64,000 bases of DNA, taken from assembly GCA_015062245.1 (NCBI GenBank), contig SUVA01000001.1, forward strand, positions 12,856 through 76,855, written 5' to 3'. The translations under genes and the position numbers were made by a program. The stretch's first letter is position 1. Every line of letters starts with the position of its first letter. Under the pieces are notes generated by a model that saw nothing but the letters and a program-made list of their open reading frames with translations, was not told the DNA's origin and searched no databases. This DNA comes from Alphaproteobacteria bacterium (GTDB lineage Bacteria; Pseudomonadota; Alphaproteobacteria; CAAHEQ01; UBA3637). Shown here in pieces: positions 11,440 through 63,584 of the stretch.

Positions 11440-12831
11440 ATGAAGCATTTGTCACTATTGACAACATTGTTATTGTCATCATCTATGGTTTATGCGGGAT
11501 GGCTAACCGAAGATTATAAAGGTGATTGCTTGGAAATGATGTGTGATTGTGTGGAAAAAGACGGAATTGGATATTGTTGTCCGTCAGGGACTTCGTTTAA
11601 CGGAAAAGGAGATGCCCATATTGAATATACGCCCTGCAAGTGTTTGGGCGCAAATACATACTATAACACGACCAGCCAAAAGTGTTTATCAAAACCCACA
11701 TGCAATCCATGTCAAAAATTGAATGTAGCCACCGGTACTTGTGTGCCGGATACCTCCAAGAACAATCTGGCAGTCGGCACATGTGGAAAGTGCAACAATG
11801 GTTCGGTTATTACAGATATGACAAAGGTAACCCCCTGTAAGACCTGTAATACCACAAACTGGACATTGACAAATAGAGCCAATGGTCAGGCAGTCGGCAC
11901 ATGTGGAAAGTGCAACAATGGTTCGGTTATTACAGATATGACAAAGGTAACCCCCTGTAAGACCTGTGATACTACAAACTGGACATTGACAAATAGAGCC
12001 AACGAAACACAGGTTCAGGATGTTTGTCATATGTGCAAAGACGGCAATGTTGTATTGAAGGATTCAACAAAACAATTTATTTCCAATAATACTTGTGTTG
12101 AATGTTTGGCTGATTATGGAACAGGTAAATCCGGTGCCTGTACAACTGAAGCAAAGCCATTGTGTCAAAATAATGTATGTCAAGCATGCCCGGCCGGACA
12201 AATTTGGAATGGAACCTCTTGCGCAACACCAAGAATTTGTACTATTTTGTATAAACAAAAAAATAAAGTTGGAAATTCTAGTTACATATCTGGCGAATGT
12301 TGTAGCCCTGATCAAAAACTTGTATCAAGTACAGGTAATACACTTTTTAATGGTTATGATTTAAATAAGACAAAATACGGATGTTGTTCTGCCGATAAAG
12401 CTTATGGAGATAGCAAATGTTGCTCTTCAAGTCAAGAACCAACAAATGATGGTTGTTGTTCTTCAAGTAAAGTGTATACCAAAAACGGCATTAAAAAATG
12501 CTGTGATGGAACGGTGTCTAATAATAAAACAGTGTGTTGTACGAATAAAATAATTACTGTTGATTTTCAGGAAAGTTACACTTTTAAGTTTGATGGAAAA
12601 GTCCATGTTAAAACATATTCTGTTGGTGGAAAACATCACAGCGGTTATTGTCGTGTTTATTTAAATGGAAAACAGATAAATAAACTAGACACAGGTGGAC
12701 ACCAAGAAACAACGATAAATAAAGAAGCAGATATAACTGTCAAAAACGGCGATCGTATTTCTGTCGATGGTCATCGTGGCAGAGGCTGGCAAGAATACAT
12801 AAAAATCACATATCCCGTTTGCGACGGATAA
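11440..12831 (+). CDS. Cysteine-rich secreted protein with CC doublets, an internal 40-aa tandem repeat and a Cys-poor C-terminal beta-rich domain
   Basis: Signal peptide (MKHLSLLTTLLLSSSMVYA); many CxxC and CC motifs (CCSSSQEPTNDGCCSSSK); C-terminal about 100 aa lacks Cys. Confidence 0.65.
   Translation: MKHLSLLTTLLLSSSMVYAGWLTEDYKGDCLEMMCDCVEKDGIGYCCPSGTSFNGKGDAHIEYTPCKCLGANTYYNTTSQKCLSKPTCNPCQKLNVATGTCVPDTSKNNLAVGTCGKCNNGSVITDMTKVTPCKTCNTTNWTLTNRANGQAVGTCGKCNNGSVITDMTKVTPCKTCDTTNWTLTNRANETQVQDVCHMCKDGNVVLKDSTKQFISNNTCVECLADYGTGKSGACTTEAKPLCQNNVCQACPAGQIWNGTSCATPRICTILYKQKNKVGNSSYISGECCSPDQKLVSSTGNTLFNGYDLNKTKYGCCSADKAYGDSKCCSSSQEPTNDGCCSSSKVYTKNGIKKCCDGTVSNNKTVCCTNKIITVDFQESYTFKFDGKVHVKTYSVGGKHHSGYCRVYLNGKQINKLDTGGHQETTINKEADITVKNGDRISVDGHRGRGWQEYIKITYPVCDG
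11769..12002 (+). repeat. Near-perfect 120-bp tandem duplication (2 copies, 2 mismatches) inside the Cys-rich gene
   Basis: ggcagtcggcacatgtggaaagtgcaacaatggttcggttattacagatatgacaaaggtaaccccctgtaagacctgt... recurs at 11769 and 11889; encodes AVGTCGKCNNGSVITDMTKVTPCKTC(N/D)TTNWTLTNRAN. Confidence 0.9.
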
Positions 12832-24966: not shown

Positions 24967-25059
24967 GTTCGCCTCCTTACATATATTATACCACAATTTT
25001 GAAATTTGTCATAAAAAACTTTCTTTTTGGCAAAAAATATGATAAAATAAGACTGTTAT

Positions 25060-25365
25060 CTGATGATAACTATGATACTAAACGGCAAGTGGAATAGATG
25101 TTGTGGACTCGGGGGCAGTACCCGACGCCTCCACCAAAAAAATTATGGGGGCGACACAGATTCGACACGCATAGTAAAGATTTGACCTTGTATCCGGTAT
25201 GGTAGCACCGTTATCGCGCTGAAAAAAATAGATGCAAACGATAATTTTGCACCTGTTGCAATGGCCGCCTAATTTAGGCGTCTGATGTGACGAATGATTC
25301 TGAAACTATTTGTACGTTTCAGTGGGGTTTGGGGTGAACCTAGCAACAGAATCACCCCACTTTTA
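25060..25365 (+). ncRNA. ssrA: tmRNA (ssrA), two-piece circularly permuted form
   Basis: Acceptor piece ends ...TCGGG-GGCAGTA-CCCGA-CGCCTCC-A-CCA at about 25136. Ten nt later the coding piece begins GGGGGCG (pairs with CGCCUCC), then ACACAGATTCGACA. Tag reading frame GCA AAC GAT AAT TTT GCA CCT GTT GCA ATG GCC GCC TAA (ANDNFAPVAMAA*) at 25234..25272; terminal hairpin GTGGGGT...ACCCCAC plus TTTT at about 25322..25364. Ends approximate. Confidence 0.75.
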
Positions 25366-36658: not shown

Positions 36659-36748
36659 GGATAGGTGGCCGAGTGGTTGAAGGCGCACGCCTGGAAAGTG
36701 TGTTTAGGGGCAACTCTAACGGAGGTTCGAATCCTCTCCTATCCGCCA
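36659..36748 (+). tRNA. tRNA-Ser (anticodon GGA), CCA encoded
   Basis: GGATAGG acceptor stem, long variable arm, anticodon loop CUGGAAA, T-arm GGAGGTTCGAATCCTCT, 3' CCTATCC-G-CCA. Confidence 0.9.
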
Positions 36749-36754
36749 GTTTTA

Positions 36755-36778
36755 GCACCCTGCGGGGTGTTTTTTTTT
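36755..36778 (+). terminator. tRNA-Ser terminator
   Basis: CACCC-TGCG-GGGTG hairpin plus T9. Confidence 0.6.
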
Positions 36779-36794
36779 ATGAGAGGATGAGAAC

Positions 36795-36937
36795 CGACAA
36801 GGAGGTTCGTTTGCGAATAAAATGAGCAGACGCCGTCAGGCGGTCCGAGTTTACGAGGACGAGGGCTTGCCCCGAGCAATCCTCTCCTATCCGCCAGTTT
36901 TAACACCCTTTTGGGTGTTTTTTTATGAGAGGATGAA
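36795..36937 (+). repeat. Partial duplicate of the tRNA-Ser 3' end plus its terminator, interrupted by about 65 bp (att-like scar or tRNA pseudogene fragment)
   Basis: GGAGGTTCG at 36801, a 65-nt insertion, then AATCCTCTCCTATCCGCCAGTTTTAACACCCTTTTGGGTGTTTTTTTATGAGAGGATGA, which repeats 36729..36793 almost exactly. Each copy is flanked by the inverted pair ATCCTCTC / GAGAGGAT. Confidence 0.6.
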
Positions 36938-37068: not shown

Positions 37069-37350
37069 ATGTTAGTTTGTAAAAATGTTATTGTCAATGG
37101 GCGCAGAACCAGTATGCGCTTGGATCGTGAAACGTGGATATCTTTATCGGATATTTGCCAAAGGGAGGGGATCACAATCCACGAATTGTGTTCTAAAATT
37201 GATGCGACAAAGGGGGTGTCGGGTTTGTCATCGGCCACACGCTTGTTTGTGCTAACTTATTTTCGGTTTTTATTGAATCAATATGAACACCATAATATCA
37301 TGCAAAATAAAACCTTTAATCCCGAAGCGGTGTTAAAGCAAACGGTATAA
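37069..37350 (+). CDS. Ribbon-helix-helix DNA-binding protein (RHH_4-like)
   Basis: NVIVNGRRTSMRLDRETWISLSDICQREG matches the alphaproteobacterial RHH family; RBS AAGGAGAAAAAATG. Confidence 0.6.
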   Translation: MLVCKNVIVNGRRTSMRLDRETWISLSDICQREGITIHELCSKIDATKGVSGLSSATRLFVLTYFRFLLNQYEHHNIMQNKTFNPEAVLKQTV

Positions 37351-37411: not shown

Positions 37412-38605
37412 TTACTTACATAACACACTGCTCAGCGTGAAATCCCATCCATCACGACCTTGTTGAGAACCTGTTCCGTTCATATACATCGGATAATTAC
37501 AATCCGAATATATAGTATTTATGCAAGAAACCCAACCATGCGCAGCTATTGAACAGGATCCAAATAATTCTGCACAACCCAATTCTTCGGGTTTGACCAT
37601 TTTCTCTTTTCCACCACATATGGCCACGCCATCACTGAAAGAAACTCCTCCGGAAATATTAACTTGAGTTCCTATCCGATTCCCTTCAGAATCTTTTATT
37701 TCTGTACAAGAAGATGGATTTTCAGCACAATAATCCTCATATTTTGGAAGCTCTTTGTTCGGATTTAAACAAATACATTTTTCCAAACTATTATCACAAA
37801 CTGCATACGCACCAGCACGCATTTCTTCCGCTGTGCATTCTGCGCAATCATACACACCACATGCAACAGCATTGCTGGATACAGCACAAGACCAACTACC
37901 ATTTACTGATTGATACCAATATCCCTTTAAAGCATTACAGCATTCTTCACCTGTACAGTCTTTTGTTCCAAATTCACATTTGCCATTCGAACAAGTGGTT
38001 GTTTTACCATCGGCGGTGGTGCAAGAATCTGTTGATGAAATATCACCTGTTTCAGAATCACAACATTGAGAGTCATATCCCACACAACAATCTTTTTTAC
38101 ATTCACCGCCACACCATTTATAGCCGGCAGCTTCGCACTTTCCACCTGTTGCGTCATCGTTATAATCAGCGGCGACTTTGTCGCTGGATAAATTATTATT
38201 ATAGGTTAAGGTCAATGTTGTTTCATTACATTCGGCTTTGCGAACCATGCCGCCTGACATCTTTTCCATTTGCTCACATACGGCCGAATCCATACCGGTG
38301 ATTTCCATTTTAAATTGTTCGTCATTGACTTTTTCCGGTGTGCCAAATGTTCCATATTTACCATTGCCAAAATCTTGAACATTTAGGGGTTTATCGGTTA
38401 GAATTTGGGAGGATATGGTGGTGGCAAGCATACTGGCCTGATGTAATAATTCATTCGCTTTGTGTTTTTTCATGGCGACACCATAACCATATACACCACC
38501 CACGGACAAGACACCCACGATGGCCAGTACGCCCAGCATTTCAACCATACTGCGCCCCTTTTGGCTTCTTTTATAGTTTTTGTTTGTTTTATTTTTTACT
38601 GACAT
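37412..38605 (-). CDS. Type IVb prepilin-like protein with large cysteine-rich C-terminal domain (candidate minor pilin / tip adhesin)
   Basis: Start at 38605 with RBS GAAAGGAGTC. 17-aa basic leader ending in Gly (MSVKNKTNKNYKRSQKG), then RSMVEMLGVLAIVGVLSVGG with Glu at +5, resembling TcpA/CofA N-terminal helices. About 380-aa mature part has some 40 Cys including CC doublets. Confidence 0.6.
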   Translation of the reverse strand: MSVKNKTNKNYKRSQKGRSMVEMLGVLAIVGVLSVGGVYGYGVAMKKHKANELLHQASMLATTISSQILTDKPLNVQDFGNGKYGTFGTPEKVNDEQFKMEITGMDSAVCEQMEKMSGGMVRKAECNETTLTLTYNNNLSSDKVAADYNDDATGGKCEAAGYKWCGGECKKDCCVGYDSQCCDSETGDISSTDSCTTADGKTTTCSNGKCEFGTKDCTGEECCNALKGYWYQSVNGSWSCAVSSNAVACGVYDCAECTAEEMRAGAYAVCDNSLEKCICLNPNKELPKYEDYCAENPSSCTEIKDSEGNRIGTQVNISGGVSFSDGVAICGGKEKMVKPEELGCAELFGSCSIAAHGWVSCINTIYSDCNYPMYMNGTGSQQGRDGWDFTLSSVLCK

Positions 38606-38650
38606 TTTTTGACTCCTTTCTTTTATTTGTTCAGACAGTAAATACCTTTT

Positions 38651-38740
38651 GTCATTCCCCACTTGATGGGGCATCCATAAGGATTTAATTCTATGGATCT
38701 TCGTGTCAAGCACGAAGATGACAGTGATGGGGTGGAATGA
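38651..38740. repeat. MITE-like element of about 90 bp with terminal inverted repeats (GTCATTCCCCAC ... GGGGTGGAATGAC), copy 1
   Basis: The 5' 27 nt GTCATTCCCCACTTGATGGGGCATCCA and the terminal GGAATGAC recur at 63489..63575; internal hairpin CTTCGTG-tcaag-CACGAAG. Confidence 0.45.
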
Positions 38741-38754
38741 CAAATACAGTTTAA

Positions 38755-38797
38755 CCCACTGTAATCATACAGTGGGTCGGTTGTGCGTTCGCACAAC
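38755..38797. promoter_or_regulatory. Two adjacent perfect 8-bp-stem hairpins upstream of the pilin-like gene
   Basis: CCCACTGT-aatcat-ACAGTGGG and GTTGTGCG-tt-CGCACAAC. Confidence 0.4.
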
Positions 38798-38815
38798 TTA
38801 ATATTCAAAATTAAA

Positions 38816-38832
38816 TGTGTGTGTGTGTGTGT
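38816..38832. repeat. (TG)8 dinucleotide tract about 210 nt upstream of the pilin-like gene start
   Basis: atgtgtgtgtgtgtgtgtgtac seen directly; a candidate slipped-strand site. Confidence 0.9.
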
Positions 38833-39002
38833 ACAAAGTACATCTATTTTCCCCTTTACCGTGGTTTAAACACATTTTAAATAGCCTCCTATTTCCTTTA
38901 CCTATCCCCACACTAGCATAAATCACCACCCTTGTCAAGCAGATTATTCGGATTTAAAAAATCCCCCGCACGGCACGGGAGATAATAGGAGACATTTTTA
39001 AA

Positions 39003-39079
<77 letters not shown>

Positions 39080-39120
39080 ACAGCTATATTATACGCTATT
39101 TTAATCTCTTGGTCAAGTGT

Positions 39121-41064
39121 TTATTCTGATAAAGTTTCAATCTCTATGCGATTTTTATGGATATAAATAAAATAAATCTTATTTCCTTGGGGGATTAGTT
39201 TATCAATTCGGCAATGCCCACTTTGAATCGGTAAAACGGCAAAATCGGCATTTGCGCAATAATCCGGTGATAAAGCAATCCGTTTACTTTTTATTTCAAC
39301 TATATTATCCTTTATTTTTTCCGACCGATAAAAGCCCAGTTTGTTTTGCCATAAAGTTTGTATCCAATCTTGACCATTTTCATTCGCATAGAAACGGCCA
39401 TTTTGAATATAAGCGATACTTTGGCCTTTATCCGCCACCATCATTATGGGATAATCTGAGTTAAATGCCGTCAATGTGCCCATTAAAATAAGAATGACAC
39501 CCATGATTTTACCCCAGTATTGCCAAAGACAAATAAAGATAATGCCAAAAATGATAAGGCTTAAACCGACCACGCTGAATGAAGGAAGGCTGATTTCGGC
39601 AAAGGGTAATTTTGAAATCCAATCTGCCATCTGTTCAATCCATTCAATAACTGTTCCCGCCCATTGAAAAAGGGCTGAATCCATTTCAAAGGGCATCAAC
39701 AAACATCCGATAAACAATAACGGCATAATAATCAGGGAAAATAAAAAGCTGAACGCAAGATTGCCCAAAATACCATAAGGTGTTATTTGATTAAAGTGCC
39801 ATATAATCAATGGTGTCAATCCCAATGAAATAGCCACACCCAAGGCGCAAAATTCACAAAAATGACGGATATATTTATTTTGGTTGGGCATAAATTGTTT
39901 GAATTTTTCATGAACGCTGACTAAAATTAAAACCGATAAAAAGGAAAGTTGAAAGCTGATAGACATTAAATTTTCCGGCCTGAATATCAACATACAAAAA
40001 CCGGCCAAAATAATTGTTCTGACAGAAAACGTTTTGCGATTGACCAATATCCCCAAAAACACCAAAGCAATCATTAAATAAGAACGAACGGCCGGAATTT
40101 GAAAGCCTGACAACGCCAAATAAAAGCCTGTGCCAATCAATGCAAAAACAGCGGCAATCTTTTTGGTATTCACATACAATGTTAAACGACCACACACAAC
40201 ACCCAATCCCCGAATCAAGAAAAACAAAAATCCCGCCAACAAAGCCATATGAAAGCCGGAAACAGATAAGACATGGACAATCCCTGAACGGCGATAAATT
40301 TGATATAATTCAGGGCTGACCAATCTTTGTTCACCGGTAATCAAAGGTGTGATGATACGGGCCTGATTTTCGGGTAGTATTTGAAAGACATGTTCGGTAA
40401 TTTGATGGCGCAAGCGTTGAAAAATGGTTGGCTTTGCATTTATATCCCGAATATCCAAAACCTGAACAACTTTGCCGATAGCACCGATTTTTTCAAAATA
40501 TAATCTTTTGGCCTGAGAGGTATGAAAGGGTGCTTTAATGCTTACGGGTGGCACCAAATTGACCTTTAATTTGACCCGTTGACCAACCTTTAACAACGGT
40601 TCCAAATTATCGTAATGCAGACGAATTTTATCGGGTTGCTTGATAACGCCCATCGGATAAGAGATGTTATTTAAAATCAAAATCTGTTTATCGGGTAAAA
40701 CAGTATTATCCGTAATTGTGGCTACAATAATTGTATTGGAAAGTTTTTGATTTAAAACTGGATGTGCCACCATCTGATAACGCAAATGACATATTGAACA
40801 ACCCAGCATCACAAATGTTATAAAAAGCATAAAACAAAAGACAAAATCTTTCTTATAAAATAAAATCAATCCCAGCACGGCCAAAGGTAAAATAATTATA
40901 CTTAAAATCGTGGGGAAGTGATAAAAGTATAACAATATCCCCGTCATAAATGCCAAGAAAGACCATATCAGGTGTTCCTGAAACATAGATTTAATTTCTG
41001 CTTTTAACTGTTTAATTTTGGGATGATACAGGGACAACATGGGGGATATTATTTTGAATTTCAT
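39121..41064 (-). CDS. comEC: DNA internalization competence protein ComEC/Rec2 (no C-terminal metallo-beta-lactamase domain)
   Basis: Polytopic membrane protein with Competence domain motif (ITGEQRL ... HVLSVSGFHMALLAG). True start may be an internal Met (e.g. 40986), since the track start overlaps the upstream lipoprotein gene. Confidence 0.8.
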   Translation of the reverse strand: MKFKIISPMLSLYHPKIKQLKAEIKSMFQEHLIWSFLAFMTGILLYFYHFPTILSIIILPLAVLGLILFYKKDFVFCFMLFITFVMLGCSICHLRYQMVAHPVLNQKLSNTIIVATITDNTVLPDKQILILNNISYPMGVIKQPDKIRLHYDNLEPLLKVGQRVKLKVNLVPPVSIKAPFHTSQAKRLYFEKIGAIGKVVQVLDIRDINAKPTIFQRLRHQITEHVFQILPENQARIITPLITGEQRLVSPELYQIYRRSGIVHVLSVSGFHMALLAGFLFFLIRGLGVVCGRLTLYVNTKKIAAVFALIGTGFYLALSGFQIPAVRSYLMIALVFLGILVNRKTFSVRTIILAGFCMLIFRPENLMSISFQLSFLSVLILVSVHEKFKQFMPNQNKYIRHFCEFCALGVAISLGLTPLIIWHFNQITPYGILGNLAFSFLFSLIIMPLLFIGCLLMPFEMDSALFQWAGTVIEWIEQMADWISKLPFAEISLPSFSVVGLSLIIFGIIFICLWQYWGKIMGVILILMGTLTAFNSDYPIMMVADKGQSIAYIQNGRFYANENGQDWIQTLWQNKLGFYRSEKIKDNIVEIKSKRIALSPDYCANADFAVLPIQSGHCRIDKLIPQGNKIYFIYIHKNRIEIETLSE

Positions 41065-63319: not shown

Positions 63320-63488
63320 TTAATATTCCTTTCGGTTTAATCGATCTAGGTTTTTATTAAAACAAAAGTTCACCTTATAGTCAACAGTTTTTTGAAATAT
63401 ATGGGATAAATTTTTGATTTCCCGAAGCTCGGATATTGATTTCAAAGGATTTTTACACACTTGCACACGGACTTGTCCATTTTTATCT

Positions 63489-63575
63489 GTCATGCCCCAC
63501 TTGATAGGGCATCCAGTGGCTATATATTCCTTATTGTGTACTTACGCATTTGATTCCCGATCAGGTCGGGAATGA
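63489..63575. repeat. MITE-like element copy 2 (GTCATGCCCCACTTGATAGGGCATCCA ... GGGAATGAC)
   Basis: Same 27-nt 5' end and GGAATGAC terminus as 38651..38740; internal hairpin TTCCCGA-tcaggt-CGGGAA; sits about 170 nt upstream of the paralog B start. Confidence 0.45.
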
Positions 63576-63584
63576 CTCTAAGTA

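Follow-up and report, generated by a model that had tools for sequence, protein, structure and literature searches.

What does the DNA between a transfer RNA (tRNA) gene and the start of a cysteine-rich, pilin-like gene do in an uncultured alphaproteobacterium? The locus lies on the minus strand of a 64-kb stretch of DNA (hereafter the window; contig SUVA01000001.1 of assembly GCA_015062245.1), in which the interval 38606-39002 runs from tRNA-Arg(TCT) to a 397-codon minus-strand open reading frame (ORF) starting at ATG 38605. A preliminary description had named the same two flanks, and these are borne out by ARAGORN and Rfam for the tRNA and by an ORF behind the Shine-Dalgarno site AAGGAG for the gene. 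It had also proposed that a TG tract in the interval is a phase-variation switch within a promoter, or that the palindromes beside it bind a regulator. Comparative data support the repeat-dependent switching. They do not support the promoter or operator mechanism, since the tract proves to lie in a leader ORF and the palindromes look like RNA hairpins. On balance, the sequences lean modestly towards a phase-variation cassette that would act through the frame of a leader ORF, in an attenuation-like manner, and not through its promoter.

A dinucleotide tract inside a leader reading frame

The tract lies at 38816..38832, as had been reported, and Tandem Repeats Finder resolves it as (CA)8.5 on the gene strand, (TG)8.5 on the plus strand, 17 nt long and 100% pure; it is the sole dinucleotide array that the program calls in the window. 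Its placement in a promoter is another matter. It is situated 78 nt 3' of a conserved -10 hexamer, within a 25-codon leader ORF, MCLNHGKGENRCTLYTHTHTFNFEY, in which it is read as Thr-His repeats and whose Shine-Dalgarno site, ATG and stops are conserved. This leader (38798..38890, minus strand) comprises a Shine-Dalgarno site AGGAGG at 38890-38885, an ATG at 38875-38873 after a spacing of 9 nt, and a TAA stop at 38800-38798. Conservation was assessed on contigs gathered by exact-protein look-up, which carry either the same gene (L001-L006, L066) or paralogues (L007, L009, L054-L063, L064), and in an alignment (A2) of eight sequences, cassettes from different loci, over a 210-nt core. In all eight cassettes the leader Shine-Dalgarno site, the ATG and the TAA used in the 17-nt state are invariant, and no insertion or deletion falls in the ORF outside the tract. 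Codons 4-13 are hypervariable and free of indels. The corresponding 30 nt (38836-38866) are hypervariable even among alleles with identical or near-identical pilin coding sequences (CDSs), and the leader on either side is nearly invariant.

Upstream of the leader stands a promoter-like site shared by the family (38903..38938, minus strand), with a -35 hexamer TTGACA at 38938-38933, a 17-nt spacer, a -10 hexamer TAGTGT at 38915-38910 and then GGGGATA. TTGACA together with GCTAnTnTGGGGATA is unchanged in the eight cassettes; position by position, the -35, GGGGATA and most of the -10 are invariant. The -10 matches the consensus at three of six positions and the site is hence unlisted by a simple promoter scan. 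From its sequence and conservation we infer that TTGACA-17-TAGTGT functions as a promoter. Further, a paralogue in another species (L016) carries the identical motif immediately 5' of a Shine-Dalgarno site and has no cassette, which supports the promoter assignment and shows the cassette to be an inserted module. The neighbouring tRNA gene points the same way. tRNA-Arg(TCT) (39003..39079, minus strand; 68.9 bits against the Rfam tRNA model) lies upstream, outside the proposed switch, and has a promoter-like site of its own, TTGACC-17-TATAAT (39088..39116, minus strand; 11 of 12 consensus matches in the promoter scan). The terminator scan places an intrinsic-terminator-like hairpin and T-run behind it at 38951..38983 (minus strand; a 10-pair stem, 38983..38961, then TTTTTAAATC). 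Because the tRNA transcript would end at this hairpin, the pilin-like gene would need its own promoter. The tRNA promoter-like site and terminator, the family promoter, the 25-codon leader ORF and the recurrence of the cassette at paralogues had all been overlooked in the preliminary description.

Its promoter placement can be cast as a model in which the tract is the spacer of a second, internal promoter, with a -35 of CTTTGT or TTGTAC and a -10 of TTTAAT, so that tract length would set promoter strength. A -10-like hexamer (TTTAAT, TGTAAT or TTTAGT) does follow the tract directly in all cassettes of alignment A2, and 17 nt is the optimal length for a spacer. However, the hexamer that precedes the tract (CTTTGT or CCTTGT) agrees with TTGACA at one to three of six positions, and no promoter is called at this point by the consensus scan; the conserved -10-like hexamer doubles as a conserved third-frame stop (TAA or TAG); and the 13-nt tracts of 13 contigs, like a 43-nt tract in a distant relative, would be non-functional spacers. 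An internal promoter also leaves unexplained why the upstream Shine-Dalgarno site and ATG are invariant, why one frame has no stop as far as the pilin Shine-Dalgarno site, and why the paralogue L045, described below, is laid out as it is. It is accordingly an improbable account of the locus.

Two stem-loops behind the leader

The two perfect hairpins that had been noted are indeed present, with coordinates that needed slight correction. Hairpin 1, GTTGTGC-GAAC-GCACAAC (38780..38797, minus strand; inverted-repeat arms of 8 nt, 38780-38787/38790-38797), starts 1 nt past the leader stop, and hairpin 2, ACCCACTGTA-TGAT-TACAGTGGGT (38754..38777, minus strand; 10-bp arms, 38754-38763/38768-38777), is a candidate attenuator or terminator stem. 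Folded as gene-strand RNA, the pair reaches -27.8 kcal/mol against -13.2 +/- 2.5 in 200 dinucleotide shuffles (z = -5.8), none of which (0/200) is as stable. Across the eight cassettes the stem of hairpin 1 is invariant and its 4-nt loop varies (GAAC, CTTG, GCAT); likewise, the stem of hairpin 2 is invariant, its loop measures 3-5 nt, and loop and stem top vary by paired insertions. Hairpin 2 is flagged as terminator-like in L007, a paralogue that lacks the mobile-element-like insert described below, and a canonical terminator occupies the equivalent position in a distant species (L019). With invariant stems, loops that vary in sequence and length, and terminators in their place elsewhere, the palindromes look like RNA hairpins and not operators, and their earlier interpretation as regulator-binding sites is not borne out.

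The operator model would have the palindromes bind a dimeric regulator, for example the ribbon-helix-helix protein encoded nearby (37069-37350), and would make the tract incidental. The inverted repeats are perfect, and a gene of the RHH_4 family stands next to the pilin-like gene both in the window and in L066. Against this, the palindromes lie 110-160 nt 3' of the conserved promoter; in hairpin 2 the half-site spacing is 3, 4 or 5 nt with pairing kept or extended, which suits a hairpin and not a dimer site; paralogues with the same hairpins have no ribbon-helix-helix neighbour; and the terminator at the equivalent position in L019 is unrelated to them. Regulator binding is thus very unlikely to be their function.

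A different possibility is that the leader acts as an untranslated cis-acting RNA, in which tract length alters folding or RNase processing. There is a perfect 8-nt complementarity between ACACAUUU at the 3' end of the tract (38813-38820) and AAAUGUGU at the leader start (38870-38877), predicted to form in several cassettes, and this pairing might block the leader start codon. A precedent exists in a simple sequence repeat that is transcribed and acts through the structure of the 5' untranslated region (UTR) and RNase III (PMC12721329). The pairing is nevertheless absent in L009, which has ATGGCT; no Rfam family matches; and conserved stops, together with a frame open to the pilin Shine-Dalgarno site, are unaccounted for by an RNA that is not translated. 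We rate this account as quite unlikely. As to known RNA families more generally, an Rfam E-value search of 38300-39300 gave the tRNA and sub-threshold noise and nothing else, and a search of ten related loci at the gathering threshold gave tRNAs and nothing else.

Two further ideas about the hairpins were considered and rejected. Compensatory covariation in hairpin 1 found no evidence in the alignment, where stems are invariant and loops alone change. Recombination sites of the integron-attC or shufflon kind do not fit on a reading of the sequences, the hairpins being short, perfect and upstream of genes, with no recombinase gene adjoining the inspected loci.

Recurrence of the cassette and variation in tract length

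The cassette is not peculiar to one gene. It recurs before paralogues at sites with other neighbours: between a kinase gene and ffh (L007), between a carboxypeptidase gene and htpG (L054-L063), between clpX and htpG (L064), and at another locus (L009). The order of elements is common to all cassettes, namely promoter, Shine-Dalgarno site and ATG, CA tract, two stops and two hairpins. Within the 210-nt core of the eight-sequence alignment, indels are confined to the CA tract (13, 15, 17 or 19 nt) and the loop of hairpin 2. What follows hairpin 2, up to the pilin Shine-Dalgarno site, differs from site to site: nothing extra in L007, the 93-nt core of a miniature inverted-repeat transposable element (MITE)-like insert in the window, the same MITE with a further 42-nt hairpin module in L005 and L064, and an unrelated 40-nt MITE in L009 and L054.

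The preliminary description had suggested comparing tract length across strains, and among assemblies the tract does vary, over 13, 15, 17 and 19 nt, with 43 nt in the distant relative. These lengths are the assembly consensus of independent metagenome assemblies. The locus occurs in the JGI metagenomes 3300032167, 3300024303, 3300018493, 3300022753 and 3300024272 and under the ENA accessions ERZ27248370, ERZ27248306 and ERZ27316928. The allele of the window, 17 nt, is shared by L001, L002, L003 and L004. In L005, whose CDS is identical to that of the window (1194/1194 nt), the tract is 19 nt long, and in L066, with 11 clustered CDS differences and a different genomic context, it is 15 nt long. 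Of the paralogues, L007 and L009 have 17 nt and L064 has 13 nt; for the htpG-adjacent paralogue, 13 contigs show a tract of 13 nt. A unit of 2 nt, not a multiple of three, therefore varies naturally in number, with 15, 17 and 19 nt found for one gene. Length alleles for the same gene and for near-identical cassettes support the slipped-strand-switch behaviour that had been suggested for the tract. Further, a protein database search with the long leader product of L005 returned six distinct called 'proteins' of 53-134 residues that combine THTH(TH) with the read-through frame, from tracts of 13 or 19 nt; one read-through leader product occurs on 13 contigs.

The distribution of the cassette appears narrow. 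Protein-guided scans of genome and metagenome contigs gave mostly distant paralogues without a tract, which suggests that the cassette is restricted to a narrow clade together with L019. An exact scan for the hairpin-1 motif in the Joint Genome Institute (JGI) metagenome contig collection gave 0 matches, the cassette-bearing samples evidently not being in that collection.

Two observations concern the history of the leaders. In L005 the pilin CDS is identical over 1194 nt and the leader differs at many positions, and in L066 the differences from the window are clustered in a patch at CDS nt 77-116; these patterns suggest frequent gene conversion between paralogous 5' regions. In addition, the contigs L003 and L004 start 2-4 nt from the 5' edge of the tract (window ~38834-38836), and such breaks may reflect within-sample heterogeneity at or beside it.

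Three reading frames and where they end

Given that the repeat unit is 2 nt, each gain or loss of a unit would move translating ribosomes among three frames, and the positions at which these frames end are unequal. With 15 or 21 nt the leader stops 14 nt before hairpin 1, at a third-frame TAA directly after the tract (38811..38813, minus strand) that is kept as TAA or TAG in all cassettes; L066, with its 15-nt tract, does end there (...THTHI*). With 17 nt, the state of the window, the stop falls 1 nt ahead of hairpin 1. Tracts of 13 or 19 nt leave the frame open through both hairpins and the MITE, until a TAA (38623..38625, minus strand) 129 nt past hairpin 2; this stop is located 5 nt ahead of the pilin Shine-Dalgarno site, and its last base 17 nt ahead of the pilin ATG. 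This read-through frame is the one assembled in L005, where it has 98 codons, and in the paralogues L054-L064. In the window, L005, L007, L009, L054 and L064, despite their differing inserts, this same frame meets no stop between the tract and a point 15-33 nt ahead of the pilin ATG. In each of these six, and in L019, the frame thus decides whether the leader would end before or beyond the stem-loop.

How often such openness would arise by chance was estimated frame by frame with dinucleotide shuffles. The probabilities are 0.25 for the shared hairpin part, 0.059 for the post-hairpin part of the window, and 0.040, 0.19, 0.55 and 0.13 for L005, L009, L007 and L019, respectively; their combination is ~1e-4, a rough product over cassettes that are not fully independent. 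A test that asks whether any frame is open is weak for each cassette (0.05-0.53), and the combined frame-specific comparison is the only persuasive one.

Two relatives extend the comparison. In the distant metagenome-assembled genome (MAG) L019, a promoter-like site and a Shine-Dalgarno site precede an ORF MKMCTWWRRAKVIKKGGIYKKSACNLCGKGI(TH)n with (CA)21.5, that is 43 nt, followed by a canonical terminator (12-bp stem and T-run, flagged by the scan) and then the pilin Shine-Dalgarno site. Two frames stop 17-31 nt before this terminator and the third crosses it to stop 15 nt before the pilin ATG. The second relative is the paralogue L045, which shares an 89-kb contig with L009. In it the family promoter, a Shine-Dalgarno site, an ATG and a 17-nt tract are present, and hairpins are absent. 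Here the tract lies in the coding region of the prepilin leader, out of frame as assembled, and a gain of one CA or a loss of two would restore MRLNNDKGQNTATLYTHTHTQVIPEKTRATEGG|RSMVEML... Given this classical in-ORF layout, the tract appears to be used as a frame switch within the pilin-like family.

These observations bear on the possibility that the cassette is a neutral passenger, homogenised by gene conversion, in which the CA tract is a tolerated microsatellite of the 5' UTR and the hairpins stabilise the mRNA or resemble repetitive extragenic palindromic (REP) sequences. Such an origin would sit well with leaders that are mosaic and recombining (as in L005, with an identical CDS and a different leader), with a leader peptide of poorly conserved sequence, with assembled tract lengths that look stable over many samples, and with shuffle tests that are individually weak. 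Yet chance would not be expected to yield a pure (CA)8.5 in a genome of 38% GC, and no other such tract occurs in the 64 kb; a CA tract in a leader ORF before a pilin paralogue recurs in a distant species in quite different sequence (L019); Shine-Dalgarno site, ATG and two-frame stops are conserved while the third frame stays open across unrelated insertions; and L045 carries the same tract as a direct in-frame switch. We therefore consider a neutral origin unlikely.

A proposed leader-frame switch and the evidence against it

The proposed leader-frame switch would work as follows. Transcription would start at TTGACA-17-TAGTGT, just downstream of the tRNA-Arg terminator, and ribosomes would load at AGGAGG/ATG and translate the short leader ORF containing (CA)n. 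Slipped-strand gain or loss of CA units would then shift them among the three frames. Read-through ribosomes alone would keep the hairpins melted, so that premature termination, polarity or occlusion would be avoided, and they would be delivered to the pilin start, where reinitiation is possible. Since the long frame ends at the Shine-Dalgarno site of the pilin-like gene, translational coupling is possible as well. By analogy with Streptococcus gallolyticus, discussed below, tracts of 13 and 19 nt would be ON, and tracts of 15 and 17 nt OFF or low. Each paralogue carries its own tract, and a cell could consequently express a changing subset of variable, cysteine-rich, pilin-like surface proteins.

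Comparison of the sequences establishes the anatomy of the cassette, its conservation, the polymorphism of tract length and the behaviour of the three frames. In contrast, translation of the leader ORF, attenuation by the hairpins, the identity of the ON state and every functional step of the switch are what we infer from that anatomy, and several further points weigh against such a switch. A pure slippage pair, with identical flanks and differing tract lengths in one population, was not seen among the assemblies; alleles of unequal tract length are further set apart by substitutions or recombination patches close by, a result of leaders that are mosaic and probably subject to gene conversion. 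The assembled states appear stable: the locus of the window has 17 nt in five of seven informative contigs, and the htpG-adjacent paralogue has 13 nt in all of its 13 contigs, a set retrieved by the long product itself. Taken singly, the shuffle tests carry little weight (0.04-0.55), and the cassettes are not unrelated; moreover, two of the three gene-strand frames, the read-through frame included, are open in the resident MITE copy anyway. The leader peptide is poorly conserved, codons 4-13 being hypervariable, and its translation is therefore backed by Shine-Dalgarno site, ATG, stops and frame conservation only. The sequence that comes after hairpin 2 in the window, UUAAACUGUAUUUG, has a degraded T-run and so no clean U-run, and the terminator scan gives no flag. 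Finally, the 17-nt state is ambiguous and the ON/OFF assignment uncertain. Because the 17-nt stop abuts hairpin 1, a position of high expression in S. gallolyticus from which ribosomes might already open a hairpin, three graded states or another ON assignment are possible.

A bolder version, which is speculative and which we would not call likely, is that each paralogue carries a three-state, frame-encoded attenuator, in which one frame runs through the hairpins and any MITE to the Shine-Dalgarno site and combines anti-termination with translational coupling, giving combinatorial surface variation. If true, such a system would be new outside S. gallolyticus and new for a dinucleotide repeat, and selection would be visibly keeping a 'meaningless' frame of 60-130 codons open.

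Known systems compared

The closest design is that of the pil1 and pil3 loci of S. gallolyticus. There, the frame is shifted by GCAGA repeats in a leader-peptide gene, and the arrival of ribosomes at a terminator depends on these repeats (Danne et al. 2014, PMC3894217). When the leader peptide ends inside or beside that terminator, ribosomes can melt it and pilus transcription rises, whereas mutation of the leader ATG or Shine-Dalgarno site, or stops in all frames, lock expression low (PMC3894217). The cassette of the window has the same organisation, a non-triplet repeat in a short ORF with its own Shine-Dalgarno site between promoter and structural gene, in which repeat number sets the leader stop relative to a downstream stem-loop; in both cases several loci per genome have a switch, here a putative one, of their own. 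In S. gallolyticus the longer leader products, which reach or cross the stem-loop, go with high expression. There are differences too. The repeat here is a dinucleotide, (CA)6.5-9.5, and there a pentamer repeated 13-26 times; the host here is a Gram-negative, uncultured alphaproteobacterium with a type IV-pilin-like family, and there the pili are sortase pili; two tandem hairpins, lacking a clean U-run in the window, take the place of the terminator; the long frame here runs for 60-110 codons through a MITE to the gene's own Shine-Dalgarno site; and the case here is made from sequence, there by experiment. Outside the pili of S. gallolyticus, phase variation by a repeat-bearing leader peptide tied to attenuation is not known to have been demonstrated by experiment, and a search of the available literature on phase variation, leader peptides and transcription attenuation gave no further worked example.

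Other repeat-based switches resemble the cassette in part. The CTCTT repeats of Neisseria opa genes and the CT repeats in signal-peptide coding regions of Helicobacter pylori are in-ORF switches of surface-protein genes. As in these, slippage near a 5' end would change the frame, and a multigene family would have one switch per paralogue; L045 has exactly this layout. In the window, by contrast, the tract lies outside the structural gene, whose own Shine-Dalgarno site and ATG are 210 nt 3' of it, so that a frame change cannot directly truncate the protein as in opa or the H. pylori outer membrane protein genes. In Haemophilus influenzae a (TA)n tract between the -35 and -10 of hifA and hifB gives length-dependent promoter strength. 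This too is a length-polymorphic dinucleotide repeat upstream of a pilus or fimbrial gene; here, however, TTGACA-17-TAGTGT lies wholly upstream of the tract, 78 nt away as measured from its -10, and the hexamers flanking the tract are poor, too weak for the promoter scan. The H. influenzae hmw1A gene has a heptamer repeat in its 5' UTR that forms one arm of a hairpin, with RNase III involved, expression graded with length and no leader ORF (PMC12721329). In common with the cassette, a simple sequence repeat is transcribed as part of an adhesin gene's 5' leader, and the structure of the leader RNA has a role; here, however, repeat and hairpins are distinct, and the reading frame would be the signal. 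In attenuation of the Escherichia coli trp type, a short translated leader is followed by stem-loops, and ribosome position, with tRNA charging as the input, decides how the RNA folds (PMC3894217). A translated leader with stem-loops is common to both; the input here would be a heritable frameshift, and no alternative antiterminator pairing was identified in the cassette.

The best explanation of the locus is that it holds a fresh version of a rare known design, an attenuation switch of the leader-ORF type under repeat control, placed before one member of a variable, pilin-like multigene family. An independent version in another phylum, with another repeat, another pilus type and a whole multigene family, would suggest a recurrent solution. 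It would also offer a likely role for a large, unannotated family of cysteine-rich, pilin-like proteins in uncultured Alphaproteobacteria of gut and rumen, as surface or adhesive structures that vary under pressure from host or phage. For annotation there is a warning as well: 'hypothetical proteins' of 60-130 residues upstream of pilin-like genes are probably leader ORFs in the read-through state.

The MITE-like element

Between hairpin 2 and the pilin ribosome-binding site lies a palindromic, MITE-like element. Its presence had been recognised, at 38651..38740; the terminal inverted repeats correct its extent to 38648..38744 (minus strand, 97 bp). These repeats, TTTGTCATTCC/GGAATGACAAA at 38648-38658 and 38734-38744, are perfect over 11 nt and enclose two internal hairpins. 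The first 22 nt recur at 63488-63509 with 2 mismatches, for a chance expectation of 0, and the element is therefore a repeated one; the second, diverged copy spans 63488..63577 on the plus strand, and each of its six frames is interrupted by stop codons. The element in the window shows the marks of a MITE: inverted repeats at its termini, small size, lack of coding capacity, multiple copies and presence or absence that differs between related sites. Related GTCATTC...GAATGAC elements occur in L015, L018 and L035. No clear target-site duplication is visible at the flanks of the element in the window, and it has no sequence match to a described family, nor did Rfam return anything.

Elements of this kind also enter coding sequence. 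In some pilin-like paralogues (L018 1441-1497, P0028, P0117, L017 ~1480), the stretch that encodes the signal leader holds in-frame GTCATTC...GAATGAC elements, which add ~20-35 residues before the G|RSMVE site and recall the palindromic elements found in coding genes of Rickettsia. Rickettsia palindromic elements and other bacterial MITEs are short palindromic repeats, some of which lie inside coding genes. The resemblance extends to a size of ~40-130 bp, terminal inverted repeats, internal hairpins, many diverged copies and, for some, in-frame positions in coding regions.

The pilin-like gene, its family and its surroundings

The gene behind the cassette (37412..38618, minus strand, including its Shine-Dalgarno site AAGGAG at 38618-38613) encodes 397 codons from ATG 38605. 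By eye, the N-terminus of its product, KG|RSMVEMLGVLAIVGVL, has the Gly at -1 and the Glu at +5 of a prepilin (KG|RSMVE-MLGVLAIVGVL), with an unusual Arg at +1; profile scores fall below the cut-off for N_methyl (15.7 against 21.2) and TIGR02532 (12.9 against 16.3). A protein database search gives 416 relatives at E <= 1e-3, in which the first 60-140 residues are almost invariant and the cysteine-rich C-terminal parts are mosaic. Some, from MAGs of uncultured Alphaproteobacteria, are labelled 'type II secretion system protein' or PulG pseudopilin by their sources, and a single contig can hold several paralogues. The AlphaFold (AF2) model has a mean predicted local distance difference test score (pLDDT) of 62.7, rising to 80-90 over residues 40-210, with a helix at 36-68 and strands at 84-135 modelled at pLDDT 80-90. 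Foldseek against the PDB gave no match at E < 0.1, with Clostridioides difficile PilW weakly present, and phmmer against PDB sequences gave no match. Given a model of low average pLDDT and no significant PDB match, the label 'pilin-like' is reasonable but unproven. Proteins starting MVEML... were considered as out-of-frame alleles and rejected, L048 and L049 being contig-end artefacts.

Paralogues without the CA cassette (L010 2700-3000, L013 1290-1490, L046 9760-10000, L050-L053 ~1200-1500) have long leaders that look structured by eye and end in a terminator-like hairpin and T-run directly before the Shine-Dalgarno site (for example CATCCGTCCACTTTT..AAGTGGATTTTTT), with no Rfam family at threshold. 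These could be undescribed riboswitch-like or attenuator leaders.

Several observations concern the surroundings of the gene. The ribbon-helix-helix gene (Pfam RHH_4, 37069-37350) adjoins the pilin-like gene in the window and in L066. Further along, the 3' end of tRNA-Ser(GGA) (36659-36748) and its terminator-like tail are duplicated 148 nt downstream (36730-36783 / 36878-36931, 87% over 54 nt), which looks like an attL/attR-type footprint of integration at a tRNA gene. Since the ribbon-helix-helix and pilin genes lie just past this duplication and have another context in L066 (GAPDH, RHH, pilin), the two may form a mobile module.

Elsewhere in the window, 11440-12831 encodes a cysteine-rich protein of 463 residues that, judged by eye, appears to have an N-terminal signal peptide and that matches neither Pfam nor NCBIfam. 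Its gene includes a tandem duplication of 120 bp (11769-12002; two copies, 98% identity), and its sequence is unrelated to the pilin-like family. Finally, a permuted, two-piece transfer-messenger RNA (tmRNA) gene, in keeping with the alphaproteobacterial origin to which the MAG names of homologues point, lies at 25044-25363 and carries the tag ANDNFAPVAMAA.

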